A stretch of 32,000 nucleotides of DNA from an uncultured archaeon (GTDB lineage Archaea > Micrarchaeota > Micrarchaeia > Micrarchaeales > CABMGC01): assembly GCA_963704435.1 (NCBI GenBank), contig OY969902.1, positions 330,001 to 362,000 on the forward strand, in the 5' to 3' direction. The translations under genes were made by a program, and so were the position numbers. Position 1 is the first letter of the stretch. Every line of letters starts with the position of its first letter. Positions 1,991-27,126 of the stretch are shown in pieces. The notes below the pieces were generated by a model. It had not been told where the DNA came from, searched no databases, and saw nothing but the letters and a program-made list of their open reading frames with translations.

Positions 1991-1991
1991 A

Positions 1992-3224: not shown

Positions 3225-3288
3225 GCTTCTAATCTGGCCCGAGGGCGGTATTTCAATCTTTCGGGGTAATGGTAAGCTTGACTGCGGT

Positions 3289-3359
3289 AGCCAGGGAAGG
3301 GAGTTGAACCCCTCTTTTCCGCTCTGCAGGCGGACGCATAGCCGATCTGCCACCCTGGC
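3289..3359 (-). tRNA. tRNA-Cys (anticodon GCA)
   Basis: Cloverleaf folded by hand from the reverse strand: acceptor GCCAGGG/CCCTGGC, D-stem GCAG/ATGC (one G-A mismatch), anticodon stem TCCGC/GCGGA with loop CTGCAGA, T-stem AGGGG/CCCTT with loop TTCAACT, discriminator U73 (typical of tRNA-Cys). No encoded CCA. Confidence 0.85.
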
Positions 3360-3433
3360 GGGCGCATATCATCATCTTTAATAAACGAACATTTAAAAAC
3401 AGTTGAAGGCAATTAAGACCGAAGGTAATTTTG

Positions 3434-4585
3434 ATGTCGACACTTTACGAGCCGCTGCCAAAGGAGTTTGTTTCCAAGACTGCATCTTTCGACTACAAGA
3501 CGCCCATGACGCAGGCGCTTGACGGGATAAGCCAGTTCGGCGCGGTCATAGTCGTCAAGGACAAGGAGTATTTCGGCATCGCGGACGGGAGGGCAGTCTC
3601 GAGGAAGGGCTCCGACAGATCCCTGAAGTTCGCGAAGACCCTGCCTGTCGGCAGGTTCGCGAGAAAGCTGCCCGTGCTCGGCCCAGACGTTTCTGTGGGC
3701 AGGACGATAAGCTATTTCCACGAGTTCTCGGCAAAGGCTTTCCCATACCGGGACGCAGGAGGCATAACGGGCATAGTGAAGAGGGATGTGGTCCTCAGGT
3801 CGATAATCTCGCTCCACCTTCTGTCCAAGTCGGTCGTCGGGGACGCGATGTCGACCCCGGTGCTCGCGATAGACGCTGGCGCAAGCCTGTCGCAGGCCAT
3901 GAGCGTGATGTCGCAGAACAAGATAACGCGGCTCATCGTGGTTGACGGGGGGAAGCCCTTCGGACTGATAACGCACAAGGACATATACTCCAATTTCGCC
4001 AGGGCGGATTCGCGGCATCCCGAGCTCACGCCTGAGCCGCGCTCTCTCTCCGACGTGACCGTGAGGCAGGTCGCAAGGACCGAGACGCACTCGATAGACT
4101 ATCAGAGCCCGCTGGAGGACGCGATAAGGAGCCTGCTCGCCAAGGGCATATCCTCGCTCATAGTCACCAGGAATGGAAGGCCCGTCGGGATGCTCTCCAT
4201 TAGGGACGTCTTCGAGCTTGCGGCGTCGAGCATAGAGAAGGTGCGCAGCAGGGTTATCGTCACTGGCATAGACGACAGCACGGTGGGCTACGAGCAGGAC
4301 ATAGAGAACGAGGCCAACAGGATGATAGACAGGATGGACAAGTTCGGCAGGCTGGGAATAAGCTACGCCGCGATAAACGTCAACAGGGTCAAGGAGAGGG
4401 GCTACGAGCTAAAGGCCAGACTGGGCTTCGAGAGGAAGGGCGTGATGTACGCGACGGCCACCGGATACGGCATCGAGGCCACGCTGACCGCGCTGCTGGA
4501 CAGCCTGTTCAAGCAGGTCAAGGAGAAGAAGGAGATGGGTGTGAGCCTCAGGAAGGGCTCCGAGAGATACTATGGCGAGAAATAG
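3434..4585 (+). CDS. CBS-domain protein (four CBS motifs) with C-terminal HPF/RaiA-like module
   Basis: The track start at 3431 is TTG; ATG is at 3434. CBS motifs include VVGDAMSTPVLAIDAGASLSQAMSVMSQNKITRLIVVDGGKPFGLITHKDI and VRQVARTETHSIDYQSPLEDAIRSLLAKGISSLIVTRNGRPVGMLSIRDVFE, plus two degenerate N-terminal ones. The C-terminal 94 aa (4253..4534) follows the HPF/YfiA pattern (see findings). Confidence 0.85.
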   Translation: MSTLYEPLPKEFVSKTASFDYKTPMTQALDGISQFGAVIVVKDKEYFGIADGRAVSRKGSDRSLKFAKTLPVGRFARKLPVLGPDVSVGRTISYFHEFSAKAFPYRDAGGITGIVKRDVVLRSIISLHLLSKSVVGDAMSTPVLAIDAGASLSQAMSVMSQNKITRLIVVDGGKPFGLITHKDIYSNFARADSRHPELTPEPRSLSDVTVRQVARTETHSIDYQSPLEDAIRSLLAKGISSLIVTRNGRPVGMLSIRDVFELAASSIEKVRSRVIVTGIDDSTVGYEQDIENEANRMIDRMDKFGRLGISYAAINVNRVKERGYELKARLGFERKGVMYATATGYGIEATLTALLDSLFKQVKEKKEMGVSLRKGSERYYGEK

Positions 4586-5051
4586 GAACGGGAGCAGGAG
4601 GCTGCAGTCGAGCTTCGAGCTCCTCGTGACGCTGTCGCTCGGCCTTGCGATACTCATGCCGATAGTGGTGATAGCGTTCGTGCAGCTCTCCGCGTCGTCA
4701 TCGTCGCTCTCTGCGATAGAGTCCCAGCAGGCCGCGAGCAAGCTCGCGAGCGTCGCAGTCCTCGTGGGGAGCCAGGGCGCCCCTGCGAAGCAGCTGGTGC
4801 AGATATCAGTCCCTCCAAACGTGAGGTACATCTACATAGGCAACGCAAACAACACCGTGGGCCACGAGGTGATATTCGTCGTCGCATCCTCATCGGGCCC
4901 TAGCTACGTCACCGCGTACACGCCCGTGAACGTCAGCGGCAGCCTCGGGAGCCTGGCCTCGGCAGGGACGTACCTTGTGAACGTGACCGCGCAGTCCTCA
5001 TGCCCCACGAACACGCTGCTGGCGTGCGTCTATATGTCCTCGAAACCATGA
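4572..5051 (+). CDS. Small pilin-like protein with class III signal peptide
   Basis: 159 aa. The N-terminus MARNRNGSRRLQSSFELLVTLSLGLAILMPIVVIAF has a basic stretch, then Q-S-S-F-E (Glu at +5 if cleaved before Q), then about 20 hydrophobic residues. The remainder is Ser/Thr/Val-rich with N-x-S/T sequons. Overlaps the CBS gene by 14 nt. Confidence 0.7.
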   Translation: MARNRNGSRRLQSSFELLVTLSLGLAILMPIVVIAFVQLSASSSSLSAIESQQAASKLASVAVLVGSQGAPAKQLVQISVPPNVRYIYIGNANNTVGHEVIFVVASSSGPSYVTAYTPVNVSGSLGSLASAGTYLVNVTAQSSCPTNTLLACVYMSSKP

Positions 5052-5197: not shown

Positions 5198-6457
5198 ATG
5201 GAGAATATCATTCCAAGAGAACTGGAAGCGAAAATTTTAAGATTTGCCAAGGATAAGGAGATTATAATCATAAGGGGGCCGCGCCAAGCTGGCAAAACAA
5301 CATTGCTGAAGCTGATAGCTGAGACCGTAAAATCAGAGAAGGTTTTCATCGATTTGGACATTCCAGAGAATAGAAACGCCCTTGCAGACTCCCCTATGGA
5401 TTTCATAGATCGGTTTGGGAAGGGCAGAAAGCTAACTTTGTTTCTAGATGAAGTCCAGCGCGTCACCGACGCTGGGGAAAAACTGAAAATAATATACGAC
5501 CAGTTCGCGGACAAGGGCGTAAAGGTGTTCGCTTCGGGTTCGTCCTCATTAGATATCAAGACGAATGTGCTTGGTTTTCTAGTTGGTAGAGCATTAATAT
5601 TTGACCTTCTTACTCTCGGATTCGGGGAATTCCTGAACTACAAAGACGAAGGCCTTTTCAACATATTCAAAATGCGGAACGACGAAGTAATGGGCTTCAT
5701 AGCGCAAGGCAATCCGATAAAGAAGCCTGCATTCACGTCCGAGATCCTAAAGTATTGGAAAGAGTACGTCTTGTTCGGAGGTTATCCGGCGGTAGTAAAG
5801 ACCAGAAGTGCCGAGGACAAAAAGATCAGGCTGAAAAACATATACGGCACATACATAGAGAAGGACATTGTCTCTTTTTTTGGGATAGGGAAGTCCTCGC
5901 TTTTTGAGGATTTTGTTGTAGCTTTGTCATTCAACACCGCAAACAGCCTTACTCTCTCATCGGTTGCCGCGGACTCAGGCATAACCCACTACGCCGCGAA
6001 AGAGTTCCTCAATATCTTGGTCGGTACGTACGTCATTGGAATCCTAAGGCCATACTATCGCAATGCCACCACTGCGATAAAGAAAGCGCCGAAGGTGTAT
6101 TTTATTGACCTTGGCCTTAGGAACGCCGCAATCGGAAACTACTCTGTCTTCGATAAGCGTGATGATAGGGGCAAGATCGGAGAGAATTTCGTATACAGGG
6201 AACTCATAGGGATGGGTTATGAGATAAACTACTGGCGCACAAAAAGTGGCGCAGAGGTGGATTTTCTAATAAAAATCGAACAGGGCATCATTCCGGTGGA
6301 GGTAAAGCTGGGCGGAGCGCGAACACTTGGCAAAAGTTTCTACAGCTTCATAGAGCGATATAAACCCAAAAGGGCGCTTATCGTGACGCTAGACCATTTT
6401 GGAAAGGAAAAAATAGGGGGTACTGAAGTATATTGGGTGCCGATATTCTACCTCTAG
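5198..6457 (+). CDS. AAA+ ATPase with C-terminal PD-(D/E)xK-like domain (COG1373/DUF4143-type architecture)
   Basis: Walker A IIIIRGPRQAGKTTLLK and Walker B LTLFLDEVQ. The C-terminal YWRTKSGAEVDFLIKIEQGIIPVEVKLG fits a D...E-x-K nuclease-fold motif. The gene and its flanks are clearly more AT-rich than the neighbouring pilin genes. Confidence 0.9.
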   Translation: MENIIPRELEAKILRFAKDKEIIIIRGPRQAGKTTLLKLIAETVKSEKVFIDLDIPENRNALADSPMDFIDRFGKGRKLTLFLDEVQRVTDAGEKLKIIYDQFADKGVKVFASGSSSLDIKTNVLGFLVGRALIFDLLTLGFGEFLNYKDEGLFNIFKMRNDEVMGFIAQGNPIKKPAFTSEILKYWKEYVLFGGYPAVVKTRSAEDKKIRLKNIYGTYIEKDIVSFFGIGKSSLFEDFVVALSFNTANSLTLSSVAADSGITHYAAKEFLNILVGTYVIGILRPYYRNATTAIKKAPKVYFIDLGLRNAAIGNYSVFDKRDDRGKIGENFVYRELIGMGYEINYWRTKSGAEVDFLIKIEQGIIPVEVKLGGARTLGKSFYSFIERYKPKRALIVTLDHFGKEKIGGTEVYWVPIFYL

Positions 6458-6561: not shown

Positions 6562-9500
6562 ATGGCCCGCAGTAAGCTCCAGTTATCCATAGAGTTCATG
6601 ATGGTCTTCTCCTTCGTGCTCGTGGTCTTCACCTTCCTGTTCGCGCTCGTGGCCACCCAGAGAGCGCAGACGCTGAACAGCCAGGAGTTCGAGCAGGGCC
6701 AGCTTGTCGCGCAGAGCGTGGCGGCGCAGCTCGACAGGGCGCTGCAGGCGGGGAACGGGTACTACGCCGCGATACCAATCACGAGCGCGCTGGGCACTCT
6801 GAACTACAAGCTGGCGATAACCAAGGGCGGGGCGGTGGTCGTCAACACCACGATAAACAAGCAGGTGACGCAGGCGATATCCTACAGCTCCGTGAAGCAG
6901 GTGGTCTCGAACCCGTCGTTCATACCCGCAGGTCTTCCTACGAACGCGGTGAGCTACTACCTGATGCCGATAGCCAACGGCACGCTGACGATACAGAACT
7001 CATTCGGGACAATCTGCGTCGACTATGCATGCCCAACCACGAGCAACACGGCAACCAACGTCAGCATGTCGGAGCAGGTAGTGCACGCAGCAAACTTCAA
7101 CGGGCAGAGCAGCTATATACAAGTAAACAATCCCTTCAGTACCAGTTGGTATTTTTATTGGCATTACGGGAGTGCTAATGTGGTTGCAGCAATAGTCGGC
7201 TCTACGGTGTATTCGTCCACTACACTTCATCCGAATGTGTGGTCGCACGTCTGCTTTACTTATTTATCTGGTTCGGGAACGCTAAATATCTATGCCAATG
7301 GTGCTCCAGCTGGCTCAGGTTCGGCGACAGGTGGTAGTACCCTATCAGTATGTGCATGGATTTATCCAACAAGCAGCGCGATAGGAGACATCACAAGCAG
7401 TGAAGATTCTACCAACTATGCGCTAATCGGTGCAAGAAACCCAACCACCAACCTCTTTCAGGGCTCCATCTCCAACGTCCAGATATACAACATCGCCCTT
7501 TCATCGAGCCAAGTTTCCGCACTCTACGCAGAGGGCATAACAGGCAGCCCACTCGCAGGGGCGGGGAATATCGGATGGTGGCCGCTCAACGGCAACGCGA
7601 ATGACTACTCAGGCAATGGCAACAATGGAAACGTCATAGAATCAATGATGTACACCACAGTGGCGCAGCTCTCCGCAAAAGTAACGAACCCGCTTGGCCA
7701 GCCGCTCGCAAATGCGCTTGTAGGATTTACTACCACTCTCGGCAACCTCACAAAAGGCCAGGTCGCCATTAACTACACCAACGGAAACGGCATCGCGACA
7801 GCGTTCCTGGACCAGCAGGGGAACAGCGGCCAGGCGCTGGTGAAGGCCACCGCATACAACGGCAATACGGCGCTGCAGGGCAACCTGGTAAGCTGGTATC
7901 CGCTCAACCTGGACCAAGGAAGCACGGTCCCCGACCTTAGCGGCAATGGCAACAACGGGGCGATGCTCTACACTAGCTGGAGCGACCCGAACTACGTGGC
8001 TGGATTTGACGGGCAGAGCAGCTATATTTCAACTTTCTCAAATAATTTTCCTACGGGCTCAAGTGCCTATTCGGTATTCGCTTGGGTTTATTTGACTTCC
8101 AATGTCCCAACAGCCATTCAGGCAATAGACTATTATGGGACCCAGGGCACGAGCTACGCGACGCGCATCTTCTCAACGGTTGGGCAGACACTTTGTTTCT
8201 TTGGAGGATCCGATACTTTCCAATCAACGCTAACAGTCCCTCTAAATACCTGGACGCTTGTTGGAGTGACCTATCAAGCATCCTCAACGCAAGTCACAAT
8301 ATACATGAATGGACAGTCGCAGATAGGAACACTGAGCGGAAGTACCGCGTTAAATACCCCTTCAGGGACGATAAACTATGTTGGCGGGAATCCCACCTAC
8401 TTGTGGTGGTTTCCGGGCAGAATTGCAAATGTACAGATGTACAGCACCGCCCTTTCGGCAAACCAGGTCCAGCAGCTCTACCCGAGCGGTATTTCCAGTC
8501 CTCCAATCGCGGGCTCGGGGCTCGTCGGTTGGTGGCCGCTCAACGGCAACGCGAACGACTACACCAGCAATAACAACAACGGTGCCATTTACGGGAACCT
8601 TAACTTCGCAAGCACGTCCTCGATTCCAAGCCCAAATGCGAACGCCACGAGCATGTTTGCCGGGGGATTCAACGGAATCAGCAGTCAAGTGACGGTAGCC
8701 TCTACCGCAATTCCGAACGCTGCCACTCTTATAGCATGGATATATCCCTATAACGTAATAGGAGAATCGGGATGCTCCAAGGAAGCCAGCGGTTGCATAT
8801 CCATAATGGGATACTCTCCGGCCTCCGCAGAATATGATCTTTGGCTTTATCTCACCAATGGGCAGCTCGGAGGCACGGCATACAGCACGACGTATCCCAT
8901 GCTTCACGGAGGCACCACCATAACTGCAAATAATTGGTATCAGGTCGCCATGACTGCATCAAATACGCTTGGCACTCTCTCTCTGTATATCAACGGCGTG
9001 AACGTGGGAACGAATGCTATAGTGAGTCAGGGATTTTGGACTGGCGGGAATCCGGAAATCGGAAATCTGAGAGCAGGGCAGACTACTAACTTCAATGGCC
9101 TCATCTCTAACGTCCAGCTCTACAACTCCACCCTGAACGCAAATCAAATCCGCACAAGCTACAGTGAAGGGATAGGCGGCCTTCCGCTCACTGCGAACCT
9201 CATCGGATGGTGGCCGCTCAACGGAAACGCGAACGACTACTCCATGGTGGGGAACAATGGGACCGCATCGAACGTCGTTTATCCCGCAATTCAGACGATG
9301 GGAGGAGGAATTCCCACCTATTCGCTGGGCTCGTACGGCGCGAACTTCAACGGCCAGAGCAGCTACGTAACCTTCGGAAACAGCATCAACCCTGGATTTG
9401 GCAGCTTCACTGTCGAGGGCTGGGCTTATGCCACAAACTACACCTACCCGAGGACGCGCATCCCCATAGGGAGCTACACGAGTTCCGGCAGCGGCTTGCC

Positions 9501-9912
9501 AGGATGGGGCATAGACGACGCCTATACTGCAGGCGCCATCACGATATATTTTTCGGACGGGACAAATAGGCTAAGCACCAGCATCCCTTGCGATCCGGGA
9601 TACAAGCCCACCGATACCCTGAACAGGTGGGCGCAGGTGGTGGTCGTTTTCAACAGGACATCGGGCAAGGCGATCGCATACGTAAATGGGGTGCAGCAAT
9701 CGACGCAGGTCTCCATCGCCGCGGTAACGGGAAACGTGTTTAACTCATATGCTGGAGAGCTCGGGCTCGTCGCCGGCTGGTACCTTAGCGGTTCGATGGC
9801 GGACGTCCAGCTATACAACGCCGCGCTGAACGCTAACCAGATCAAGCAGCTCTACCAGAGCCAGATGCCGCCCAGCGCCAGTGCAGCCGTTCCTTTGAGT
9901 TGGGTCCCATGA
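6562..9912 (+). CDS. Giant pilin-signal protein with four LamG (concanavalin A-like lectin) modules and one Ig-like insert
   Basis: Track start 6535 is GTG; the ATG at 6562 gives MARSKLQLSIEFMMVFSFVLVVFTFLFALVA (class III signal-like, Q+1...E+5). There are four modules, each starting near FNGQSSY/FDGQSSY and ending ISNVQIYNIALSSSQVSALYAEGITGSPL, IANVQMYSTALSANQVQQLYPSGISSPPI, ISNVQLYNSTLNANQIRTSYSEGIGGLPL and MADVQLYNAALNANQIKQLYQSQ. An Ig/Big-like segment (AKVTNPLGQPLANALVGFTTTLGN...NGIATAFLDQQGNSGQALVKATA) lies at about 7633..7890. Confidence 0.9.
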   Translation: MARSKLQLSIEFMMVFSFVLVVFTFLFALVATQRAQTLNSQEFEQGQLVAQSVAAQLDRALQAGNGYYAAIPITSALGTLNYKLAITKGGAVVVNTTINKQVTQAISYSSVKQVVSNPSFIPAGLPTNAVSYYLMPIANGTLTIQNSFGTICVDYACPTTSNTATNVSMSEQVVHAANFNGQSSYIQVNNPFSTSWYFYWHYGSANVVAAIVGSTVYSSTTLHPNVWSHVCFTYLSGSGTLNIYANGAPAGSGSATGGSTLSVCAWIYPTSSAIGDITSSEDSTNYALIGARNPTTNLFQGSISNVQIYNIALSSSQVSALYAEGITGSPLAGAGNIGWWPLNGNANDYSGNGNNGNVIESMMYTTVAQLSAKVTNPLGQPLANALVGFTTTLGNLTKGQVAINYTNGNGIATAFLDQQGNSGQALVKATAYNGNTALQGNLVSWYPLNLDQGSTVPDLSGNGNNGAMLYTSWSDPNYVAGFDGQSSYISTFSNNFPTGSSAYSVFAWVYLTSNVPTAIQAIDYYGTQGTSYATRIFSTVGQTLCFFGGSDTFQSTLTVPLNTWTLVGVTYQASSTQVTIYMNGQSQIGTLSGSTALNTPSGTINYVGGNPTYLWWFPGRIANVQMYSTALSANQVQQLYPSGISSPPIAGSGLVGWWPLNGNANDYTSNNNNGAIYGNLNFASTSSIPSPNANATSMFAGGFNGISSQVTVASTAIPNAATLIAWIYPYNVIGESGCSKEASGCISIMGYSPASAEYDLWLYLTNGQLGGTAYSTTYPMLHGGTTITANNWYQVAMTASNTLGTLSLYINGVNVGTNAIVSQGFWTGGNPEIGNLRAGQTTNFNGLISNVQLYNSTLNANQIRTSYSEGIGGLPLTANLIGWWPLNGNANDYSMVGNNGTASNVVYPAIQTMGGGIPTYSLGSYGANFNGQSSYVTFGNSINPGFGSFTVEGWAYATNYTYPRTRIPIGSYTSSGSGLPGWGIDDAYTAGAITIYFSDGTNRLSTSIPCDPGYKPTDTLNRWAQVVVVFNRTSGKAIAYVNGVQQSTQVSIAAVTGNVFNSYAGELGLVAGWYLSGSMADVQLYNAALNANQIKQLYQSQMPPSASAAVPLSWVP
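7571..7628 (+). repeat. LamG-junction DNA repeat, copy 1 of 5
   Basis: tcggatggtggccgctcaacggcaacgcgaatgactactcaggcaatggcaacaatgg encodes GWWPLNGNANDYSGNGNNG. Confidence 0.8.
8525..8582 (+). repeat. LamG-junction DNA repeat, copy 2 of 5
   Basis: tcggttggtggccgctcaacggcaacgcgaacgactacaccagcaataacaacaacgg; about 37 of the first 40 nt match copy 1 by eye. Confidence 0.8.
9203..9260 (+). repeat. LamG-junction DNA repeat, copy 3 of 5
   Basis: tcggatggtggccgctcaacggaaacgcgaacgactactccatggtggggaacaatgg; about 38 of the first 40 nt match copy 1 by eye. Confidence 0.8.
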
Positions 9913-10448
9913 AGGCGCAGTTCTGGTCTTTCGATGCAATATTCGCGATGGTGATATTCATAGCCGCGCTGGTCCTGCTGACGTTCGTCTGGAACAGCAT
10001 GAGCAACCAGTTCTCTCTCGCGTCCGGATTCGGCGTCGTGAACATGCAGGCCCAGCTGCAGAGCCTGCAGAACAGGATAATCACGCAGGGCGCACCCGCA
10101 AACTGGAACTCTCAGGTCAATGTCTCGAAAATCTCAACGTGGTCAAATGTGAGCATAGGCCTGGGAACAGGCGGAGGATCGTCGCTCTCGGTAAACAAGA
10201 TAATGACCTTTGTGGCGATGTCCGACCACAACAGCACGGCGTACCAGGCCACGAAGCCGCTTCTCGGAGTTGGCTATGATTATTATATCACAATATACGA
10301 AAGCAATGTGACGATTGGATTGGGGATTCCCCCATATGCGCACAGCCCAACAGCAATTCAGGTCGCAAGGCAGTCCGTAGTGGTAAACGGAGCACCTGCG
10401 CAGATGCAGATAATTGTCTGGACGAACAAGACCTTCGGTGTCAGTTGA
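9909..10448 (+). CDS. Small pilin-like protein with class III signal peptide
   Basis: The ATG at 9909 overlaps the upstream TGA (ATGA at 9909..9912). N-terminus is MKAQFWSFDAIFAMVIFIAALVLLTFVW (K-A then a hydrophobic stretch). 179 aa with several N-x-S/T sequons. Confidence 0.75.
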   Translation: MKAQFWSFDAIFAMVIFIAALVLLTFVWNSMSNQFSLASGFGVVNMQAQLQSLQNRIITQGAPANWNSQVNVSKISTWSNVSIGLGTGGGSSLSVNKIMTFVAMSDHNSTAYQATKPLLGVGYDYYITIYESNVTIGLGIPPYAHSPTAIQVARQSVVVNGAPAQMQIIVWTNKTFGVS

Positions 10449-12604
10449 TGAAAGGCGTGATGTTCACACTCGATGCGCTCTTCGCGCTGCTGATAGCGGC
10501 AGCAGGCATCTCTGTGCTGCTGTACTTCAACTACTATGCGCAGAACCCCTCCACGATTCCATACTCAAATGCGCAGTCAATCCTATATGACTTGCTATCG
10601 ACGCCCGTACAAAGCATCCAGAACAGTAGCGTACTCGCAAAGACCATGGCCAACCAGTTCGCAGGCGCAAATGAGACCTGGGCGCAGCTCATGGGCGGCG
10701 TAGCAAGAAACAGCAGCAATCCCATAGGTCCCATAAGACCGCTCATATCGTCAGTCTTCACGTCCGCCAACCCGATAACGACCGGAGTCGTCGCAGACTA
10801 CGGGAATATCTATTTCGCTTCAGGCAGCGGGCTCTATGCGGTAAACGCTACATCTAACCAGTCAATATGGAGCGTTTATGAAAGCGCTAGCGTCGTATCT
10901 GCCCCTGCGCTGTACCGCGGAACGGTGATATTCGCAACTTCCACGAATCTTATCGCCGTGGATGCGAGAACGGGTTCGACTCTCTGGAGCACAGCGATAT
11001 CTGGATTTACTCCTACTTCTTCAATAGCAGCCTATGACAACAGGGTGCTGTTCGGCGCTACGGACGGTAACGTGCACGCATATTATGCCAATAACGGGAC
11101 AGCCTTGTGGACATATTCTGTTGGGGGCTATCCAACGCTGATAACCGTGGCCTCAGGAAGTTTTGCAGTAAAAACTTCAGCGAACAATATCTTCCTCCTG
11201 TCTCAATTTGGAACTACGGCAAACCAGATCTGGAGCACGACCCCTCCCTCGCCTCCGACCAACGGCCTGGTTAGCGTCGGCAGCGCAATATATTTCGGAA
11301 CGAGCACGACCGCCAATGCGATAGCTATCAATTCTGTGCAGGCTGGCGGGTTTCCGGCGAGCGTGCCATCTGCGACAAGCGGAGTGGCTGCTTACAAAAG
11401 TTATGTAATATATCAAGGAGCTACAACAATCAATGCGCTTTCTACCTCTGGCGCACAGTATTGGAGCTTAAACCCGGTGCCCTCTTATTTCGGCAGCGGA
11501 ATAGCTAACGCAACTCCCGCAGTTTCAGGAAGCATGGTCTACACGCTCTGGGCGAACGGATTGGCGGGGCAGTACCTCAACAACGGAACGGTGGCGTGGT
11601 TCGCTCCGGTTACCGCGACACTCCCGTACATGGCGCTCGCGTACGGCAGGCTCTATGTGGTTTCCGGAAGCCAGGTGATTGCATACGGATCCTGCAACGC
11701 CCCCTTTAACGCGTCGATGCTCACCTCGATAGCCACTCTTACGCTTAATTCGCAATCGGGATGCGCGCTTGCGCTGTCTAACGTTGCGTATCCTGCGGCG
11801 AACTATACTGTGTTCGCGGGCAACGCCTCGAGCCGGAGAATCCAGGTTGCGAACTTCAACGGCGGGACAAGCAACTATGTGATTGCCACCTCCCCATCTG
11901 GATTAACGGGTAGCGGCTCAATCTGCGCATGGTTCTATCCATCTGCATCACAGATGTCTTATGCATACACGATAGGCGACTTTGGGACTTCGGGCACCGA
12001 TACGCATGAACTTGACCTTCTGATAAATGGAGGAATATTTCAGGTTTTGAATGCTGTTGGAGGGACAGAATACGCCCTAACCACGGCCTCTCCCGCATTG
12101 GGAACTTGGCATTTGGGTTGTGCAACCTGGACAGGTTCTAACATGTATCTCTATCTTGACGGAGTCCCTCCTGTTTCTAACGCGTATGGAACTACGGATC
12201 CTCTTGATTGGTCGTCCATCTCCTATATTGGCGCCAGGCCAGGCGCAGGCAACCAGGTATGGCTGGGACAACTATCAAACTTCCAGATCTACGGATCCGC
12301 CCTCTCTGCTAATCAGGTGCAAGCGCTCTACCAGGAGGGCATCTCAGGACCTCCAATCAGCTCGGCCAGCCCCAGAGCGTGGTATCCGCTCGAAGGGGAC
12401 ACGAACGACTATGCAGGATTCAGCTCGGGATATGCGGCTAACGTGAACTTCGTGGCGCAGAACGCGATCTCGCCACACTTCTCGAACGCCTATTCCATAA
12501 GCGAGTCCCGCACCCTGCTGCCGCTGCTGAACTATTCAAGATTGACATATAACGCAATAGGCGCGTACGGAGTCTATCCTGTAGGTGTTTATTCATGGAG
12601 ATGA
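10448..12604 (+). CDS. Pilin-signal protein with PQQ-like beta-propeller repeats and one C-terminal LamG module
   Basis: The ATG at 10448 shares its A with the upstream TGA (10446..10448). N-terminus is MKGVMFTLDALFALLIAAAGISVLLYF. Repeated blades of the type GNIYFASGSGLYAVNATSNQSIWS, GTVIFATSTNLIAVDARTGSTLWS and NRVLFGATDGNVHAYYANNGTALWT span about 10790..11693. A LamG module follows (ANFNGGTSNYV ... LSNFQIYGSALSANQVQALYQEGISGPPI). Confidence 0.9.
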   Translation: MKGVMFTLDALFALLIAAAGISVLLYFNYYAQNPSTIPYSNAQSILYDLLSTPVQSIQNSSVLAKTMANQFAGANETWAQLMGGVARNSSNPIGPIRPLISSVFTSANPITTGVVADYGNIYFASGSGLYAVNATSNQSIWSVYESASVVSAPALYRGTVIFATSTNLIAVDARTGSTLWSTAISGFTPTSSIAAYDNRVLFGATDGNVHAYYANNGTALWTYSVGGYPTLITVASGSFAVKTSANNIFLLSQFGTTANQIWSTTPPSPPTNGLVSVGSAIYFGTSTTANAIAINSVQAGGFPASVPSATSGVAAYKSYVIYQGATTINALSTSGAQYWSLNPVPSYFGSGIANATPAVSGSMVYTLWANGLAGQYLNNGTVAWFAPVTATLPYMALAYGRLYVVSGSQVIAYGSCNAPFNASMLTSIATLTLNSQSGCALALSNVAYPAANYTVFAGNASSRRIQVANFNGGTSNYVIATSPSGLTGSGSICAWFYPSASQMSYAYTIGDFGTSGTDTHELDLLINGGIFQVLNAVGGTEYALTTASPALGTWHLGCATWTGSNMYLYLDGVPPVSNAYGTTDPLDWSSISYIGARPGAGNQVWLGQLSNFQIYGSALSANQVQALYQEGISGPPISSASPRAWYPLEGDTNDYAGFSSGYAANVNFVAQNAISPHFSNAYSISESRTLLPLLNYSRLTYNAIGAYGVYPVGVYSWR

Positions 12605-15195
12605 AGTCAATCCTCAGGAGGTCGCACAAGGCACAGCTAATGACAATACTGGTGCTGGTGCTCTTCATGCTCATGCTGGCTGAGCTGTTCGCGTTCGCTC
12701 TGCTGAACGTGAACTCGAACAGCATGGCGCAGCAGCTCACAGTATCGCTCAGCACGAACAATTACGGCAGCCTTCTTAAGCAGAGCGCGGGAGCATTCGC
12801 GCAGGCGAGCATGTATGGCGCCCTTGCGGCGATAACGAATTACGAATACAGCCCTGCGCTCAGGAAGGGCAACTTCATAGCCAATTTCAGCCAGTACATG
12901 TCGTATCTCATGACGAACGGGATTCTCCCAAACGATGTCTCGGGATATCCGCAGAACGCGATGGGAAATCTCACTCTCGCAAGCTACAACGCTTCCATAT
13001 CAAAGCTCGTGGGTTTCGCCTCGCAGAACGTAATCGTGAACGAGACCGCGCCCAGGATCTTCCAAACGGATCCGTTCCATCTGCGCGTATCATACACGGA
13101 GAACATAGCGATAAACGCGTCAGGAAGCATCTACAGGTATAGCATACCCGTCAACGCGTCGATAAACCTCAACAATACGCCCGACCTCTTCTACGCGCAG
13201 CAGGGCATTCTCAGAACGGTAAAGTTCGCGAGCGCAAGCAATCTGACTTCTGTCGTCTCGGGCTCTTATGCCACTTCGGGCAACACTATCGACTATGCCT
13301 ATGGCACGGTATACGCAATCTCAAGCAGTTCCACGAGCAGCGCCACCTGCTCGGGCGGCTACGTAGCTGGCATGCCCTCCCAGTTCAACTCCGCGCTCGC
13401 GAACTCCCTGATAATATCCACTTACAACGCGTTGAGCCTAAGCTCATGCATAACCAGCTATGGGGGCCTCGTATCCTATATCGCGCCTTCGAGTCTACCG
13501 GCCATGCCTTATCTCACATACTCCTCATCATCAGGAGTCGTGGCGAGCCTGCCCACAGGCATGCACGTCCTGCTCTACGGCCCGGGGATGGACGTGCTGA
13601 ACATAGAGAACCTGAGGAACGCGGTCATGAACGCCAACTACTTCCCTTCGCAGTTCACGCCCTCGTTCATCGACAGGGCGAATGCGAACTTCGCCGACCA
13701 GTCGCCCAACGGCATATTCTCCTTCAACAACTACAACACCCAGATTGCGAGCTTCAACGGCGCCAGCAGTTTCGTGGATGTACCATACAATTCCGTAATC
13801 GAGGGCATGACGAGCAACATCGCCGTGAGTGCATGGGTTAGTACGGCTTCGTCCTCAGCCCAGGTTATCTTCTCGGCGTGGGACGGCACCAACGGCTACC
13901 AGCTATACTCGAATAGTGGCAACGTTATCCTATGGTCCAATGGCGGCGGATCCCTCGTCTCTCCCAAGCGCGTCAACGACGGCAACTGGCACTACATAGT
14001 CGGAGTCTACACCAGCTCCATGAAGTACCTCTATGTGGATGGCGTGCTGGTCGCCAGCGGATCAGGCACACTCTCCGCCTCGACCAAGGATGCGCAGATA
14101 GGCACACAGTGCTCCGGTTCGGGCGGCACTACCTGCAGCGACTTCTTCTCCAACTCCATCGCTAATGTACAGCTATACGGCCTGCCGTTAACGGCGGCGC
14201 AGGTCCAGCAGATCTACCAGGAGGGCATCTCCGGCCTCCCGATAGCCAACGCGGGATTGGTCGGGTGGTGGCCACTCAACGGGAACGCCAACGATTTCTC
14301 TGGCAACAGCAACAACGGTGTGCCAAACTACGTTACATATAGATTGCCCTCAAACTATGCCCGGGACAGCATTCTCGTCGCCAATACGCCAATGGCTCCC
14401 CAGCCGCTCCCAGGAATCCTTTCCTGCACGTCGAACAGCCAGTGCGCGAGCAACAGCCTGCCGATGCTTTACCTCAGCTACATGCCGCTCGCGGTCCAGA
14501 GCGGGATCATGCAGTCAGGGGGATTCAACGGCTGGACCAACTACATAAGCGTGTCTTCCAGCGCTCTGGACACGGGCAGCGCGGTCACGATGGTGGTCTG
14601 GAGCGACCAACTCGGATCAGGGAACCAGGGGACGCGCGGCATAATGTTCTCGCAATATTCGACATATCTGGACGTTTGCTACAGCGGCGCGCCGCTGTTT
14701 GCTGTCGAGAACTTAGGAGGCACCCAGATACTCGCGCAGGGGGGGACCTGCCCTACCGCAGGGGTGTGGAGGCAGTATGTTGGCACCTATGACGGCTCAA
14801 CGATGCGGCTGTACATAAATGGCGTTCAGGTAGGAAGCAATTCCCAGAGCGGCACGCTGGGTCCCGCGGCAGTGAATATCGGGGAATACTACGCCGGCAG
14901 CTACAATTTCAATGGCCTGCTATCGAACGTGCAGCTCTACAACGCAGCCCTGTCCGCGACCCAGGTGAGCAGCCTCTATCAAGAAGGCATCGCGGGCATA
15001 CCGTTAACGGCGAATCTCGTCGGATGGTGGCCGCTCAACGGCAATGCCAACGACTACAGCGGCAACGGGAACAGCGGGGTTCCGGTCAACGGAGTCATCT
15101 ATCCTTACTTCTCGGGAACGTACAACGCCCCGGGCTTGTCGTCCATCGCCACGACGGCGAACGAGTGGCAGGCGCTCGGCCTTGCGAACACGTGA
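12595..15195 (+). CDS. Pilin-signal protein with two LamG modules
   Basis: ATG at 12595; an alternative ATG at 12601 forms an ATGA overlap with the upstream stop. The N-terminus ...RRSHKAQLMTILVLVLFMLMLAELFAFALL has K-A then a hydrophobic stretch. LamG modules end IANVQLYGLPLTAAQVQQIYQEGISGLPI and LSNVQLYNAALSATQVSSLYQEGIAGIPL. The protein stops shortly after a final GWWPLNGNANDYSGNGNSG motif. Confidence 0.9.
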   Translation: MEMKSILRRSHKAQLMTILVLVLFMLMLAELFAFALLNVNSNSMAQQLTVSLSTNNYGSLLKQSAGAFAQASMYGALAAITNYEYSPALRKGNFIANFSQYMSYLMTNGILPNDVSGYPQNAMGNLTLASYNASISKLVGFASQNVIVNETAPRIFQTDPFHLRVSYTENIAINASGSIYRYSIPVNASINLNNTPDLFYAQQGILRTVKFASASNLTSVVSGSYATSGNTIDYAYGTVYAISSSSTSSATCSGGYVAGMPSQFNSALANSLIISTYNALSLSSCITSYGGLVSYIAPSSLPAMPYLTYSSSSGVVASLPTGMHVLLYGPGMDVLNIENLRNAVMNANYFPSQFTPSFIDRANANFADQSPNGIFSFNNYNTQIASFNGASSFVDVPYNSVIEGMTSNIAVSAWVSTASSSAQVIFSAWDGTNGYQLYSNSGNVILWSNGGGSLVSPKRVNDGNWHYIVGVYTSSMKYLYVDGVLVASGSGTLSASTKDAQIGTQCSGSGGTTCSDFFSNSIANVQLYGLPLTAAQVQQIYQEGISGLPIANAGLVGWWPLNGNANDFSGNSNNGVPNYVTYRLPSNYARDSILVANTPMAPQPLPGILSCTSNSQCASNSLPMLYLSYMPLAVQSGIMQSGGFNGWTNYISVSSSALDTGSAVTMVVWSDQLGSGNQGTRGIMFSQYSTYLDVCYSGAPLFAVENLGGTQILAQGGTCPTAGVWRQYVGTYDGSTMRLYINGVQVGSNSQSGTLGPAAVNIGEYYAGSYNFNGLLSNVQLYNAALSATQVSSLYQEGIAGIPLTANLVGWWPLNGNANDYSGNGNSGVPVNGVIYPYFSGTYNAPGLSSIATTANEWQALGLANT
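14261..14318 (+). repeat. LamG-junction DNA repeat, copy 4 of 5 (most diverged)
   Basis: tcgggtggtggccactcaacgggaacgccaacgatttctctggcaacagcaacaacgg, located in the third large gene. Confidence 0.7.
15019..15076 (+). repeat. LamG-junction DNA repeat, copy 5 of 5
   Basis: tcggatggtggccgctcaacggcaatgccaacgactacagcggcaacgggaacagcgg, close to the 3' end of the third large gene with no LamG body after it. Confidence 0.8.
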
Positions 15196-15231: not shown

Positions 15232-16233
15232 TCATGCTCCGCTGACGCTGGTGAATATCCCGCCTATCACCACGCTGACCACGAAGAACACCACTATCCC
15301 TATCACCAGGAACGCGGGCAGGTACCTGAGACCCTTCAGCACCGACCCCGTGGATATGGCGCTGACTATGAACGACCCGAAACCGGATATCAGCAGCACG
15401 GCTGCGATGGAGAAATCATAGTACTCGCTAGTGGTTATCTGCGGAGGGCTGGGCTTGAGGAAAGAGATGCCCTGCGTCGGAAGGCCTCCGGGGTTCTGCC
15501 TCAGTATCCCCGCCCATACCGAGTTGGTCATCGTGATCATCTGGGAGGTAAGCGCGTAGAGCACGGGCGTTCCTATTATCGTCGCGAACGCTATGAAGAT
15601 GGTGTACATGAAAAGCTGTCCTGATATCTCCTTGCCCACCATGGCCTGATTCCTCATGTCCTTCGAGAGCTGGTTCAGGAGGTCGGTCATGCCTCCGCCG
15701 TACTGTATGCCCTCGATCATGAGCCTGACCGTGTGCTGCAGCTGCACCGACCGGTAGGTCCTGGACAGGTTTATCAGCGCGCTCTGCAGGGTGGCGCCGG
15801 CGTACAGGTCCTTGTTCATCTCCTTGACGTCGTCGCTGAAATAGCCGAAGTCCGGCCTCGCGGCCAGCAGCATGGACTTGTCCAGGGCGACACCGCTCCT
15901 TACGTTGGCTGCGGTCAGCTGCAGGTAGTCCGGCAGCACCGTCTCCACGAAGTTCTTCCTCTGCTCTATCCGGAACTCAAGGATGGCGTATATGATGATC
16001 TCGTACGCCGCTGCCGCGATGAATGCGGCGAGCGCGGCAAGGCCGGCGTTGAGCTTCATGATCAGGACGAGAGCGAAAGGCATGGCTGCGAATATCCCCA
16101 GCCCGCCGATTATCGCGATCTGGAGGAACCGGTTGAGGTCCATCTTTATCCCGGAGAGCTTCAGCTCCCTGGACAGCACGGTACCCAGGCTCCTCGATAC
16201 GAGCTTCTCGAAATCTATCTTCATCCGATTCAC
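15232..16233 (-). CDS. Type II secretion system F-family (FlaJ/TadC-like) pilus platform membrane protein
   Basis: 333 aa polytopic protein. A cytoplasmic helical T2SS-F-like block (LPDYLQLTAANVRSGVALDKSMLLAARPDFGYFSDDVKEMNKDLYAGATLQSALINLS) is flanked by TM segments. The GTG at 16233 overlaps the upstream TGA; an alternative ATG is at 16224. Confidence 0.85.
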   Translation of the reverse strand: MNRMKIDFEKLVSRSLGTVLSRELKLSGIKMDLNRFLQIAIIGGLGIFAAMPFALVLIMKLNAGLAALAAFIAAAAYEIIIYAILEFRIEQRKNFVETVLPDYLQLTAANVRSGVALDKSMLLAARPDFGYFSDDVKEMNKDLYAGATLQSALINLSRTYRSVQLQHTVRLMIEGIQYGGGMTDLLNQLSKDMRNQAMVGKEISGQLFMYTIFIAFATIIGTPVLYALTSQMITMTNSVWAGILRQNPGGLPTQGISFLKPSPPQITTSEYYDFSIAAVLLISGFGSFIVSAISTGSVLKGLRYLPAFLVIGIVVFFVVSVVIGGIFTSVSGA

Positions 16234-17675
16234 ATCGCGAAAGTGGGCCTCGACGACCTCACTATGTTAAGGAATATTATCTGCAGGAAGGTTATGCCCA
16301 CGAGCACCATCAGGAGCGTCGATACGTTTATGGTGAACAGGTTGACGAAAGTCGTGAGTATCGCGGCTATCGCTATCCCCATGCTCGGGAATATGACTCC
16401 GAAGAGCATGTAGAACATGGCGAGCGCGTTGAGCCTCTGCCCGTAGCGCCTCATGTCTATGACCCTCTCCTGCGACGCCTCCTCCACCACGCCCTGGAGC
16501 GCGTCCACCACGTCGGCCCCTGCCTTGAGGCTGACGCTCGCCTGGAGCATCACCCTCTTGAACGTCTTGGACTTGCTCTTGCTGCTGACGTCGTCTATCG
16601 CCTGCTCTATCGGGGAACCGACCTGCACCAGCTCAACAACCTTCGCGAACTCCTTGCTCGCGGCGCCGTAGCCTGTGCTCACCGCGGCCATGGCGTTGAA
16701 CAGCGGCATCCCGGACCTCATGCTTATGACCATGTCCCTCGCTGCGAAGAGGATGTCGCGCTCTATCTCATTGCCGATTATGGTGCTCCGGTCGATAGGG
16801 TACCTTATGAACTTGTTGAAGAGCGCGGGATAGCTTGCTCCTCCAAGGAGCACTGCGAGCAGGATCGGCACGGCTGGCTCAAAGGGAAAGAACTGCAATA
16901 GCAACATGGCGACGGCCACTGTTATCACCGCGACGATGATCATGGTGTTTATGAACATCTTCTTGACGAAGGCGTACGGGGATTCCTTTATTCCCTGCGC
17001 CCTGAGTGCCGCCTCAAGGTCCTTGTGCTTCGCGGCGACGCTGGCGAAGTATATCTGGATGCTTCCGGGCCTCTTGTATCCGGGCTTCGCCGCGGGCCCC
17101 TGCGCTCCGGGAGCGGCCGGGCGGGCCTGCGCGGTAGCTGCCTGGGCCGCGGGCTTCCTTGCCGGGCCGAACGGCTCGAACTTCCTGACTGGCGCCGGCT
17201 CCGGCCGCGCGCTGAAGACCGGCTTCATCTCGGGCAAGGTGGTCTTCTTCGGACCGAAAAGCGAAAGCGGCTTCTTGGGAGGGGGCGCGGCGGCTGGCTT
17301 TGCCTCCGGGAGCGGCTTCATCTCCGGAAGCCGCGTCTTCTTTGGCCCGAAGAGGGAGAACGGCTTGCTCGGCGAAGGCGGAACGGCCGGCCTTGCGACC
17401 GGAATCGGCTTGGCCGCTGGCGGCTTGGGCTCCTTTGGCTTGAAAAGCGTGAACTTCTTTGGAGGAGACGCTGGCGCGGGTGCCTTCCAGATTGGCGCGG
17501 GCTTCGGCGGCGTTGCAGCCATCGGCGCACCTGCCTGCTTGCTCCCGAATATTGGCTTGGCCCTTACCTTGAAGAACCCGATCTTCTTCGGTTTGGTGAA
17601 TCCGACGACGTTACCCGTCCCCGCTTCGGTGCCCTTAGCGCTTTCCTTCCTCTTGAAAAGGACCATCGGAATCAA
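16230..17675 (-). CDS. T2SS-F-family (FlaJ/TadB-like) platform protein with long Pro/Ala/Lys-rich N-terminal extension
   Basis: The C-terminal half has TM segments plus a T2SS-F block (IERDILFAARDMVISMRSGMPLFNAMAAVSTGYGAASKEFAKVVELVQVGSPIEQAIDDV). The first roughly 205 aa are low complexity with repeated F-x-L-F-G-P-K-K motifs. Track start 17675 is TTG; ATG at 17666 (MVLFKRK...) is an alternative. Confidence 0.85.
   Translation of the reverse strand: MIPMVLFKRKESAKGTEAGTGNVVGFTKPKKIGFFKVRAKPIFGSKQAGAPMAATPPKPAPIWKAPAPASPPKKFTLFKPKEPKPPAAKPIPVARPAVPPSPSKPFSLFGPKKTRLPEMKPLPEAKPAAAPPPKKPLSLFGPKKTTLPEMKPVFSARPEPAPVRKFEPFGPARKPAAQAATAQARPAAPGAQGPAAKPGYKRPGSIQIYFASVAAKHKDLEAALRAQGIKESPYAFVKKMFINTMIIVAVITVAVAMLLLQFFPFEPAVPILLAVLLGGASYPALFNKFIRYPIDRSTIIGNEIERDILFAARDMVISMRSGMPLFNAMAAVSTGYGAASKEFAKVVELVQVGSPIEQAIDDVSSKSKSKTFKRVMLQASVSLKAGADVVDALQGVVEEASQERVIDMRRYGQRLNALAMFYMLFGVIFPSMGIAIAAILTTFVNLFTINVSTLLMVLVGITFLQIIFLNIVRSSRPTFAM
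17220..17366 (-). repeat. In-frame tandem duplication inside the platform-protein N-terminal extension
   Basis: KPFSLFGPKKTRLPEMKP and KPLSLFGPKKTTLPEMKP lie 31 aa apart. The DNA repeat is visible on the plus strand as ggcttcatctc.gg.a....gtcttctt.gg.ccgaa.ag.ga.a.cggctt occurring twice. Confidence 0.8.
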
Positions 17676-17718: not shown

Positions 17719-18351
17719 TCAGCCGCGCTGCAGCGTCAGGCCCATGGCCGTCGCAATCTCGATGGCCTTTTGGTTCCTGAGCGCCACGAGTTCCTTCTGC
17801 TCATCACTCAGGCCCTTGGTGTCCTCCCTCATCGAGGCCGCGTAGAGCCACCGGATCTCATTGGCTATTATCCCGAGCTGCTTCTTGTCGAACGTCCCCT
17901 CGGCCATGCCCTGCTCTATGCTCTCCAGGTCGGACAGCTGGTCCTGCACGGACAGCTTCGGCATGACGAGCTTCCTTGCGGAGATCCCTGCCAGGTCGCC
18001 CTTGACCGATTCCCCGAGCTCCCTCCCTGCGCCGCCAACGACGCCGCTGAGCGCCCTCGCGGCGCCCTCCGCTTCATTCCCGAGGGACGGCTTCCTGACG
18101 GCCGGCGCCTGAGGTTCCGCGCGCTGCGCCGCTGCCTTCTGCGCCTGCGGCTGCTGGGCGGCAGCCTCCGCGGTCTTCGCCTCCACGCTCTCGAGCAGCG
18201 CGCTCACCTCCGAATACGCGACGGCCCTTATCTCCATCCCCTTCGAGAGCATCGCGTCTATGTCGATGGCGGCGGTCCCGGTGCCGCCCGCTGCCGCCTC
18301 CCCTATGAGCGCCGCCGCCTTCTCGTAATCGCTCGCATCGTCCGCGGTCAC
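17719..18351 (-). CDS. Hypothetical Ala/Glu/Gln-rich protein between the ATPase and platform genes
   Basis: 210 aa. The GTG start at 18351 overlaps the ATPase TGA (GTGA at 18351..18348). The N-terminal two thirds are low complexity. The C-terminal roughly 70 aa look helical (LSDLESIEQGMAEGTFDKKQLGIIANEIRWLYAASMRED...). No family recognised. Confidence 0.55.
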   Translation of the reverse strand: MTADDASDYEKAAALIGEAAAGGTGTAAIDIDAMLSKGMEIRAVAYSEVSALLESVEAKTAEAAAQQPQAQKAAAQRAEPQAPAVRKPSLGNEAEGAARALSGVVGGAGRELGESVKGDLAGISARKLVMPKLSVQDQLSDLESIEQGMAEGTFDKKQLGIIANEIRWLYAASMREDTKGLSDEQKELVALRNQKAIEIATAMGLTLQRG

Positions 18352-21081: not shown

Positions 21082-21100
21082 GGGTACGCATAGGGTGTTG

Positions 21101-21110
21101 TTATTTAAAG
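21101..21110 (-). promoter_or_regulatory. TATA-like box upstream of the coiled-coil gene
   Basis: Reverse strand reads ctttaaataa, about 20-29 nt upstream of the ATG at 21081. Confidence 0.35.
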
Positions 21111-21170
21111 CCTTAACGCTTCTGTTCTGGGAAAAACAACGGTGGAGCTTCGCGCCCAGAACCTGCTGCC

Positions 21171-21386
21171 TCAGCCCTTGGCGACCGGCGCGAGGTACAT
21201 CCTTCCCCTCTTGTAGATTACCTTCGTCATCTTCGCCTTCTCCAGCGCTCCCGCCCACGCCTCTATTACCGCCTCGCTCACTCCGAGAGTGCCCGCGAGC
21301 GCGGACGATTCCGTCTCGCCGTGCTCGTTAAGGTACTTGACCAGGTCGTCGATGCTGGTCGTTATGCTCTGTTCGTCCGAGGACAT
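21171..21386 (-). CDS. Stand-alone winged-helix-like protein, paralog of the coiled-coil protein N-domain
   Basis: 71 aa: MSSDEQSITTSIDDLVKYLNEHGETESSALAGTLGVSEAVIEAWAGALEKAKMTKVIYKRGRMYLAPVAKG. It aligns residue for residue with the first roughly 70 aa of the downstream gene. Confidence 0.7.
   Translation of the reverse strand: MSSDEQSITTSIDDLVKYLNEHGETESSALAGTLGVSEAVIEAWAGALEKAKMTKVIYKRGRMYLAPVAKG
21295..21367. repeat. 73-nt perfect direct repeat, copy 2 (partner 20996..21068)
   Basis: Same 73-nt string as copy 1, offset by 299 nt. Confidence 0.9.
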
Positions 21387-22963: not shown

Positions 22964-22970
22964 AGAAACA

Positions 22971-26973: not shown

Positions 26974-26995
26974 CTCTCGACGACAAGAATTTCTC

Positions 26996-27068
26996 TAGCT
27001 CCAGCCAGATTCGGACTGGCGTTCCCAGGTCCAGAGCCTGATGTCCTTGACCACTAGACGATGGAGCT
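26996..27068 (-). tRNA. tRNA-Gln (anticodon CUG)
   Basis: Hand-folded: acceptor AGCTCCA/TGGAGCT (A1-U72, as in archaeal tRNA-Gln), D-stem GTCT/GGAC, anticodon stem TCAGG/CCTGG with loop CTCTGGA, T-stem GCCAG/CTGGC, T-loop TCCGAAT (C at position 55), discriminator A. Confidence 0.85.
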
Positions 27069-27126
27069 ACGCTTCCCTCATTTGTTGTTCAATGTTTAAT
27101 AACATTCTCATGCCAATTCCTGATTC

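Follow-up and report, generated by a model that had tools for sequence, protein, structure and literature searches.

Results

Domain architecture and predicted fold of the target protein

We analyzed a 32,000-nucleotide stretch of DNA from an uncultured, tiny symbiotic archaeon of the Micrarchaeota (assembly GCA_963704435.1, contig OY969902.1, positions 330,001 to 362,000 of the forward strand), referred to below as the window, and focused on a gene at window positions 10448-12604 on the plus strand. Its product, the target protein, carries a pilin-like N-terminal segment, a beta-propeller and a LamG domain, and its gene lies in a conserved cassette of pilin-like genes next to genes for type IV filament assembly. 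The open reading frame (ORF) is intact. An ATG start gives 718 amino acids and an upstream TTG at 10445 gives 719, and the N-terminal sequence of the protein is MKGVMFTLDALFALLIAAAGISVLLYF.

An earlier note on this DNA had proposed that the ORF joins a prepilin-like start to a PQQ (pyrroloquinoline quinone)-like propeller and a LamG module. The order of the two domains was confirmed by Pfam and by an AlphaFold2 model. PQQ_2 matches residues 107-294 (E 1e-18) and Laminin_G_3 matches residues 473-625 (E 5e-20), both above their curated cut-offs. The model was built from an alignment of 40 homologs and reached a mean predicted local distance difference test (pLDDT) score of 83 and a predicted template modeling (pTM) score of 0.84. 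It predicts a helix at residues 7-26, a linker, short helices at 39-72, a propeller at 100-413, helices at 424-447, a LamG domain at about 453-630 and a C-terminal beta region.

The structure prediction that the earlier note had suggested thus yielded a confident propeller (residues 100-415 with its margins; positions 10745-11692). Counting strands in the model gave eight four-stranded blades, the last of which is closed by strand 100-105, so the earlier count of about seven was slightly low. The best Foldseek matches in the Protein Data Bank (PDB) were the eight-bladed BamB and YxaL and tetrathionate hydrolase, with E values of about 1e-17, and BamB and YxaL reached a template modeling (TM) score of about 0.75 on the target. 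BamB was also what the propeller matched when a profile was searched against PDB sequences (E 2e-22). The propeller thus resembles BamB, and no PilY1 structure was among the top Foldseek matches. No PilY1 domain was detected by Pfam or among the top PDB profile matches either, which leaves the PilY1-like identity suggested earlier as an analogy only.

The segments on either side of the propeller differ in predicted order. Between the N-terminal helix and the propeller (positions 10529-10744), a flexible linker (residues 28-38) is followed by a helical region (residues 39-72) that leads up to the propeller. pLDDT falls below 50 at residues 26-37 and 79-89, and is about 90 in helices 39-51, 54-57 and 62-72. 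Behind the propeller lies a helical linker (11693-11803; helices 424-433 and 437-447 in the model) with C416 and C439. Both cysteines are kept in at least 90% of the aligned sequences and may form a disulfide. The whole protein has four cysteines, none of them in the propeller.

The LamG domain is predicted as a concanavalin A-like jelly-roll (residues 453-632; 11804-12343). Its profile matches in the PDB include an S-layer domain, an arabinanase module, pentraxins and a neurotoxin Hc domain. The C-terminal beta region (residues 633-718 and the stop codon; 12344-12604) has the motif W-x-P-L-x-G-D-x-N-D-Y, a hairpin at residues 684-717 (strands 684-700 and 703-717 in the model) and the ending G-V-Y-S-W. 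W645, Y655, N695 and W717 are invariant in the homolog alignment. A related motif, W-W-P-L-N-G-N-A-N-D-Y, follows each LamG repeat in the neighboring proteins.

Charged residues make up only about 5% of the target. N-x-S/T sequons with conserved position are found at N75, N133, N216, N452 and N695. We also considered whether sequons are enriched and rejected this, as 12 were found against 10.5 ± 2.8 expected from composition; it is just the positional conservation of some sites that is informative.

The N-terminus has features of a class III signal

N-terminal motifs were counted in 79 homologs from the fetched loci. K2, F6, T7 and D9 are present in 100% of them, and position 3 is G or A in 77/79 (97%). 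The start with K-G and a hydrophobic helix, to which the earlier note had drawn attention, is therefore real and not a chance match. The leader M-K-[GA] is followed by about 24 hydrophobic residues with a buried acidic residue. In the target, the predicted leader M-K-G occupies positions 10448-10456 and the hydrophobic helix (residues 4-27) positions 10457-10528. Cleavage would take place after G3, which puts D9 at +6.

Such a start, a short basic leader ending in [KR]-[GA] and then about 20 hydrophobic residues, is what defines an archaeal class III (prepilin-type) signal. PibD was reported to cut leaders of 3-4 residues, and the EppA-type pilins of Methanococcus have Gln at +1 and an acidic residue at +5 (PMC4187195).

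Mean pairwise identity falls from 65% in residues 1-27 to 44% in the C-terminal region, 38% in the propeller and 29% in LamG. The N-terminal segment is therefore the best-conserved part of the protein and LamG the most variable module. In a passive anchor one would expect less constraint than anywhere else in the protein, so the conservation of the helix suggests that it makes specific contacts. In addition, residues 1-44 of the target family align with residues 1-44 of the family of a 179-residue protein encoded directly upstream (hhalign, E 1.2e-4). Taken together, the motif, its conservation and its context, rather than a match to a family model, suggest that the target bears a class III-type signal and is one member of a group of pilin-like proteins.

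A conserved cassette of five pilin-like genes

The cassette that contains the target encodes, in this order, a CBS-domain protein, a 159-residue protein, a protein of about 1116 residues with five LamG repeats, a 179-residue protein, the target and an 866-residue protein with two LamG repeats. All but the CBS-domain protein are pilin-like, which makes the target the fourth of these five. Start and stop codons overlap along the cassette. This order is conserved in about 75 Micrarchaeota species; it was observed in four loci found by exact protein look-up and in most of 82 loci examined by tblastn. Upstream of the target homolog in loci L043, L046, L047 and L048, homologs of the giant LamG protein and of the 179-residue protein are encoded on the other strand, with no machinery genes nearby; these loci have a rearranged version of the cassette.

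The CBS-domain gene (3431-4585, plus strand; Pfam CBS, E 2e-25), whose product is cytoplasmic, comes first, and its 3' end overlaps the next start. It was found in the same position in four loci (L001-L004) and, by tblastn, in 38 loci. CBS proteins also adjoin other archaeal type IV filament loci (bioRxiv 10.64898/2026.04.22.720090), and the one encoded here may regulate the filament system.

The 159-residue protein (4572-5051, plus strand) starts with [KR]-[LAG]-Q-S-S-F-E-L-L, and the Q, S and E of this motif are 100% conserved in 38 loci. The motif thus has the Gln at +1 and the acidic residue at +5 that mark EppA-type archaeal pilins (PMC4187195). A Pfam search with the protein gave no match. 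On the strength of its start, we consider it a candidate for the major pilin or a core subunit.

The giant protein (6562-9912, plus strand; about 1116-1125 residues; five Laminin_G_3 matches, E 1e-62) has the N-terminus [KR]-[LAG]-Q-I-A-L-[ED]-[FY], with Q at 100% in 38 loci, and its stop codon overlaps the next start. That start belongs to the 179-residue protein (9909-10448, plus strand), which begins with M-[KR]-[ALG]-Q-F-W-S-x-D; Q, S and D of this motif are 100% conserved in 74 loci. AlphaFold predicts for it a helix (residues 2-57) and a small four-stranded sheet domain, a "lollipop" with pLDDT 85. The modeled shape is the general shape of type IV pilins, suggesting that the protein is likely a minor pilin. 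The last gene (12595-15195, plus strand; two Laminin_G_3 matches, E 3e-37) overlaps the target end by 10 nt and encodes the 866-residue protein, whose N-terminus is [KR]-[GA]-[QIF]-L-M-T in 72 loci.

Overall, the four cassette partners of the target share the start [KR]-[GAL]-Q, with Gln at +1 invariant in three and predominant in the fourth, and an acidic residue at +5 or +6 is invariant or near-invariant in three of the four. These starts agree with the rule for EppA substrates (PMC4187195). A pattern scan of the window for further pilin-like starts returned just the cassette genes, with no small stand-alone major pilin gene among the hits.

One more gene, for an AAA_14/DUF4143 ATPase (5198-6457, plus strand; Pfam AAA_14 and DUF4143), lies between the first and second pilin-like genes. 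Its guanine-plus-cytosine (GC) content is 0.44, compared with about 0.53-0.61 in the flanking kilobases, and it is absent from the same position in four related loci (L001-L004). It looks like a recent insertion that is not part of the filament system.

Linkage to type IV filament machinery

Convergent with the cassette, five genes on the minus strand include those for the machinery. The platform is split between a first-half protein (15232-16233; single T2SSF, E 7e-15; TadB/TadC-like) and a second-half protein of 481 residues (16230-17675; single T2SSF, E 2e-13) with a Pro/Ala/Lys-rich N-terminal extension. Within this extension (about 17080-17620, minus strand) we observed the repeated unit P-[FL]-S-L-F-G-P-K-K-T-x-L-P-E-M-K-P; the homologs in loci L001 and L004 are about 80 residues shorter. 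Next come a soluble accessory protein (17719-18351), which has no visible hydrophobic segment and no Pfam match and is conserved in the same position in 36 loci, and the assembly ATPase (18348-19874; Pfam T2SSE, E 2e-31). The last gene encodes a coiled-coil protein beside the ATPase (19879-21258), with weak coiled-coil-type matches and the same position in 44 loci. Against NCBIfam, the ATPase matched FlaI (E 4e-75), TadA (E 5e-50) and BasE (E 1e-39), all below the equivalog cut-offs.

Among the 53 loci with at least 6 kb of flank past the final cassette gene, 44 (83%) have the two T2SSF genes and the T2SSE gene directly downstream of the cassette, and in the other 9 the cassette lies apart from the machinery genes. 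A platform split into two genes is a stated hallmark of archaeal clade 1 or system 1 (Epd-type) filaments, which were reported in methanogens, Thermococcales and DPANN (PMC4858521; bioRxiv 10.64898/2026.04.22.720090). Some DPANN 4A loci likewise have two platform genes (bioRxiv 10.64898/2026.04.22.720090). With its split platform, one ATPase, five pilin-like genes and LamG proteins, the locus fits the system 1 or clade 1 features. By this comparison we provisionally assign the filament system to the Epd/Tad-like 'system 1' type with a split platform.

Distribution and modularity of the family

About 44 database proteins share the full-length architecture of the target. The named ones belong to Micrarchaeota, apart from a few bins labeled Marsarchaeota, and the closest is 54% identical to the target, so the source Micrarchaeon has no close counterpart in the collections searched. 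When one genome was scanned for each GTDB species, relatives turned up in 78 loci, and every full-length match was in a Micrarchaeota-type metagenome-assembled genome. Just two matches fell outside such genomes, both short propeller fragments. The propeller-LamG family thus appears restricted to Micrarchaeota.

With only the first 100 residues as query, a search of 1.84 billion cluster representatives retrieved 120 proteins. Most of them have 700-790 residues, a second size class has 910-985 residues and a few have 1064-1402 residues. In the larger relatives (910-1402 residues), the added part is a further LamG, a stretch of DUF2341 or another propeller, of lactonase-like type, and the 1402-residue variant occupies the same cassette position as the target. 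The same N-terminus thus recurs with varied modules: it behaves as a constant carrier, and the ectodomain behaves as a module set that can be extended.

Discussion

Proposed role of the target protein

We propose, at a probability of roughly 0.6, that the target is a pilin-like subunit of modular build that acts as an adhesin in a type IV filament system found across the Micrarchaeota. The class III-like N-terminus and the conserved filament operon make a propeller-plus-lectin ectodomain, tethered by a pilin-like helix, the best reading of the protein, and the direct tethering foreseen in the earlier note holds up on these grounds.

According to this proposal, the target would insert into the membrane through its N-terminal hydrophobic helix, and, on the cytoplasmic side, M-K-G would be cut off by a PibD/FlaK-type prepilin peptidase encoded elsewhere in the genome. 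The helix would then be pulled from the membrane by the ATPase together with the two half-platform proteins, and the face that bears the invariant F, T and D would pack against the helices of the other four pilin-like proteins of the cassette. The product would most plausibly be a tip-located or priming complex, or a short fibre. With three such bulky subunits among the five, a place in the filament body is less plausible. Flexible linkers would hold the propeller, the variable LamG module and the C-terminal beta region outside the cell, where these parts would bind ligands. Glycans or proteins, either on a host archaeon's surface or in a biofilm, are the most likely ones. An extracellular binding role would fit the BamB-like scaffold of the propeller, the low charge of the target, its conserved sequons, the Cys pair of the linker and the variability of LamG.

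Comparison with known systems

The design has parallels in bacteria. In the modular type IV pilins of Streptococcus sanguinis, as described in PMC8179133 (Raynaud 2021) and PMC9934059, a pilin-type N-terminus bears a grafted adhesive module, as in the target: a vWA module in PilB and a ConA/LamG lectin in PilC. Many such architectures are reported there, and these pilins are proposed to be at the pilus tip. The PilC module belongs to the same ConA/LamG superfamily as the LamG of the target. The bacterial proteins differ in having a full helix-and-sheet pilin module and the bacterial IPR012902 motif (PMC8179133), whereas the target has an archaeal-type signal, no pilin head and an added propeller. 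Bacterial pilin models in Pfam and NCBIfam did not match the target.

In PMC8179133, its list of pilin architectures aside, a beta-propeller is named just for PilC/PilY1. PilY1/PilC offers a functional analogy to the target, being a large propeller protein that is associated with minor pilins and has a proposed role in adhesion. PilY1 family proteins carry variable modules, including DUF2341 and vWA (PMC8179133, PMC4858521). PilY1 is a non-pilin docked on minor pilins, whereas the target bears its own pilin-like N-terminus and an eight-bladed BamB/PQQ-like propeller. PilY1 itself has a modified propeller of seven blades (Pfam PF05567). BamB, a lipoprotein in the outer membrane of bacteria, is part of the BAM complex. 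BamB and YxaL share with the target propeller a fold and a repeat family; as organism and context have nothing in common, this is a similarity at the level of the scaffold only.

Among archaeal systems, the clade 1 or system 1 (Epd-type) loci share three features with the target locus: the platform is divided between two TadC-like genes, Gln at +1 and an acidic residue at +5 recur in several minor pilins, and large jelly-roll proteins are adhesin candidates (PMC4858521; PMC4187195; bioRxiv 10.64898/2026.04.22.720090). Large DUF2341/LamG-type proteins were predicted to be PilY-like (tip) adhesins of clade 1 pili (Makarova 2016, PMC4858521), and Epd-type pili with DUF2341/LamG PilY-like adhesins occur in Methanococci, Thermococci and some DPANN. 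DUF2341 is also present in some variants of the target family. Unlike at Epd-type loci, no EppA gene was found in the window and no Epd-type major pilin of 70 residues was identified. In the Micrarchaeon Mia14, expanded LamG genes are linked to pilus loci (Golyshina 2017, PMC5498576).

The Sulfolobus bindosome and 'functionalized TFF' (type IV filament) proteins have the same layout as the target, with a short basic leader, a helix of about 20 residues and a functional ectodomain without a pilin head (PMC4187195; bioRxiv 10.64898/2026.04.22.720090). They are handled by a type IV filament-like ATPase and platform; similar machinery is present at the target locus, judged here by its genes. Bindosome proteins are solute-binding proteins that feed ABC transporters, whereas the target has adhesion-type modules and sits inside a pilin operon.

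Several elements of the proposal are thus already known in outline: bacterial modular pilins, the Sulfolobus bindosome, predicted archaeal PilY-like adhesins, pilus-linked LamG genes in Micrarchaeota and functionalized type IV filaments. Literature searches for pilins of Micrarchaeota, or for archaeal pilins bearing a propeller, did not turn up the propeller-LamG family. As far as these searches reach, what is new is a phylum-wide family with a BamB-like propeller behind a pilin helix, the five-gene cassette as a unit and the accretion of modules. The earlier note knew of no description of this architecture for archaeal pili. This stands for the exact family, but the novelty was overstated in general, given what PMC4858521, PMC5498576 and PMC8179133 describe.

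Weighing the evidence

Several observations weigh against our proposal. The three subunits of 718-1125 residues are hard to fit in a filament body, and in the target model no pilin head follows the helix, which stops at residue 26 and gives way to short helices and then the propeller. Pilin-type models in Pfam did not match the first 60-69 residues of any of the five cassette proteins at E values up to 10, nor did pilin or archaellin N-terminal models in NCBIfam match the full proteins at E values up to 1. Curated pilin N-terminal models are short and often miss divergent pilins. The N-terminal alignment between the target and the 179-residue family has an hhalign probability of only 54%. For the 179-residue protein itself, Foldseek against the PDB gave a best E value of 0.01, with chance-level matches to ribosomal proteins, and its profile found no solved pilin among PDB sequences.

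Processing of the leaders raises two further points of this kind. No prepilin peptidase was found among the larger ORFs of the window, and Leu is common at -1 in three of the cassette partners (20/35, 15/38 and 21/74 homologs of the 159-residue, giant LamG and 179-residue proteins). Gln at +1 is invariant in these three proteins. Known archaeal prepilin peptidase sites carry Gly or Ala at -1, so the peptidase may have an unusual specificity, or the proteins may be processed at another site. A cultured Micrarchaeon is reported to have one FlaK-like peptidase, whose gene lies apart from the pilus loci (PMC5498576).

Of the other explanations, a bindosome-like or pseudopilus display is the main rival, though unlikely in our judgment. 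The class III signal and the same ATPase and platform would then serve a short envelope-embedded assembly, or a membrane-anchored array with other LamG proteins, and not the tip of a long filament. The layout of the target, leader, helix and functional domain without a pilin head, is that of the Sulfolobus sugar-binding proteins and of thousands of archaeal binding proteins with class III signals (PMC4187195; bioRxiv 10.64898/2026.04.22.720090). The large size of three of the five cassette proteins, the match of the filament ATPase to the bindosome ATPase BasE (E 1e-39) and the result of the pattern scan, which showed no small stand-alone major pilin gene in the window, point the same way. However, the same ATPase scores FlaI and TadA above BasE, the 159- and 179-residue proteins resemble ordinary pilins and could build a fibre, and electron microscopy showed pili-like connections between ARMAN cells and their Thermoplasmatales hosts (work cited in PMC5498576). 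A plain signal-anchored or Sec-secreted surface protein, whose neighborhood would reflect co-regulation of surface proteins with no link to a pilus mechanism, is very unlikely. It would account for the failure of pilin hidden Markov models to match the target N-terminus, for a helix of only about 20 residues in the AlphaFold2 model and for the 9/53 loci in which the cassette is away from the machinery. It would not lead one to expect an invariant or near-invariant basic residue, small residue and buried Asp, a helix far more conserved than the ectodomain, related N-terminal motifs in all five cassette proteins, or a strict, translationally coupled gene order with 83% linkage to the machinery.

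The propeller could also be catalytic, and the target an extracellular enzyme resembling a PQQ-dependent dehydrogenase or a tetrathionate hydrolase, with LamG serving to bind carbohydrate. The structure and sequence matches do include tetrathionate hydrolase and quinoprotein dehydrogenases, and LamG-type modules accompany glycoside hydrolases such as arabinanase. Nevertheless, we regard this as the least credible explanation of all. The PQQ enzyme model PF01011 scored 15.5 bits against a cut-off of 26.7, TIGR03075 in NCBIfam scored 27 bits against a cut-off of 480, and the target is only about 15% identical to tetrathionate hydrolase. The best matches, BamB and YxaL, are non-enzymatic scaffolds. 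Methanol and ethanol dehydrogenases have a vicinal Cys pair; the propeller of the target has no cysteine and hence no such pair. In addition, a cultured Micrarchaeon lacks a complete PQQ synthesis pathway (PMC5498576).

A relationship to TafC of the Tat-fimbriae of Haloarcula was considered separately and rejected. In NCBIfam the target scored a weak 19 bits, and all three matching proteins were far below the cut-off of 410. As only the LamG region was covered, these matches reflect a shared domain and not a shared system.

A candidate for host attachment

If the target is a filament-borne adhesin, as we propose, it is an archaeal example of type IV filaments diversified by modules grafted onto a pilin helix, here with a propeller and no pilin head. 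This design principle would not surprise a specialist. To our knowledge, how DPANN archaea recognize and hold their hosts is largely unknown. The cassette, present in about 75 Micrarchaeota species, combines a pilus-type anchor with binding modules, one of them fast-evolving, and therefore makes the family a concrete candidate for host attachment. More tentatively, and with the odds against it, the five-gene cassette might be a host-recognition organelle of Micrarchaeota, with giant propeller or lectin adhesins as three of the five pilin-like subunits of a pilus tip or short fibre. The fast evolution of LamG and lineage-specific modules would then determine the host archaea open to this episymbiont.

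Other features of the window

Upstream of the cassette, a tyrosine integrase gene (1992-3353, minus strand) overlaps with its 5' end a tRNA-Cys gene (3289-3359, minus strand), and a low-GC (0.39) ORF with a weak MarR-like match lies beside the integrase. The region 1013-3359 probably marks the border of a mobile element that integrated just ahead of the pilus cassette. On the far side of the machinery genes, a run of three genes for TrkA_N (RCK) domain proteins follows immediately (21439-23396, minus strand), an arrangement shared with locus L001. Farther downstream, a low-GC stretch contains a toxin-antitoxin-like nucleotidyltransferase/HEPN gene pair and an IS200-type transposase gene (24899-25899 and 26239-26694), and tRNA-Gln (26995-27069) adjoins it. 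The window also encodes the archaeal markers CDC48 and aIF2-gamma.

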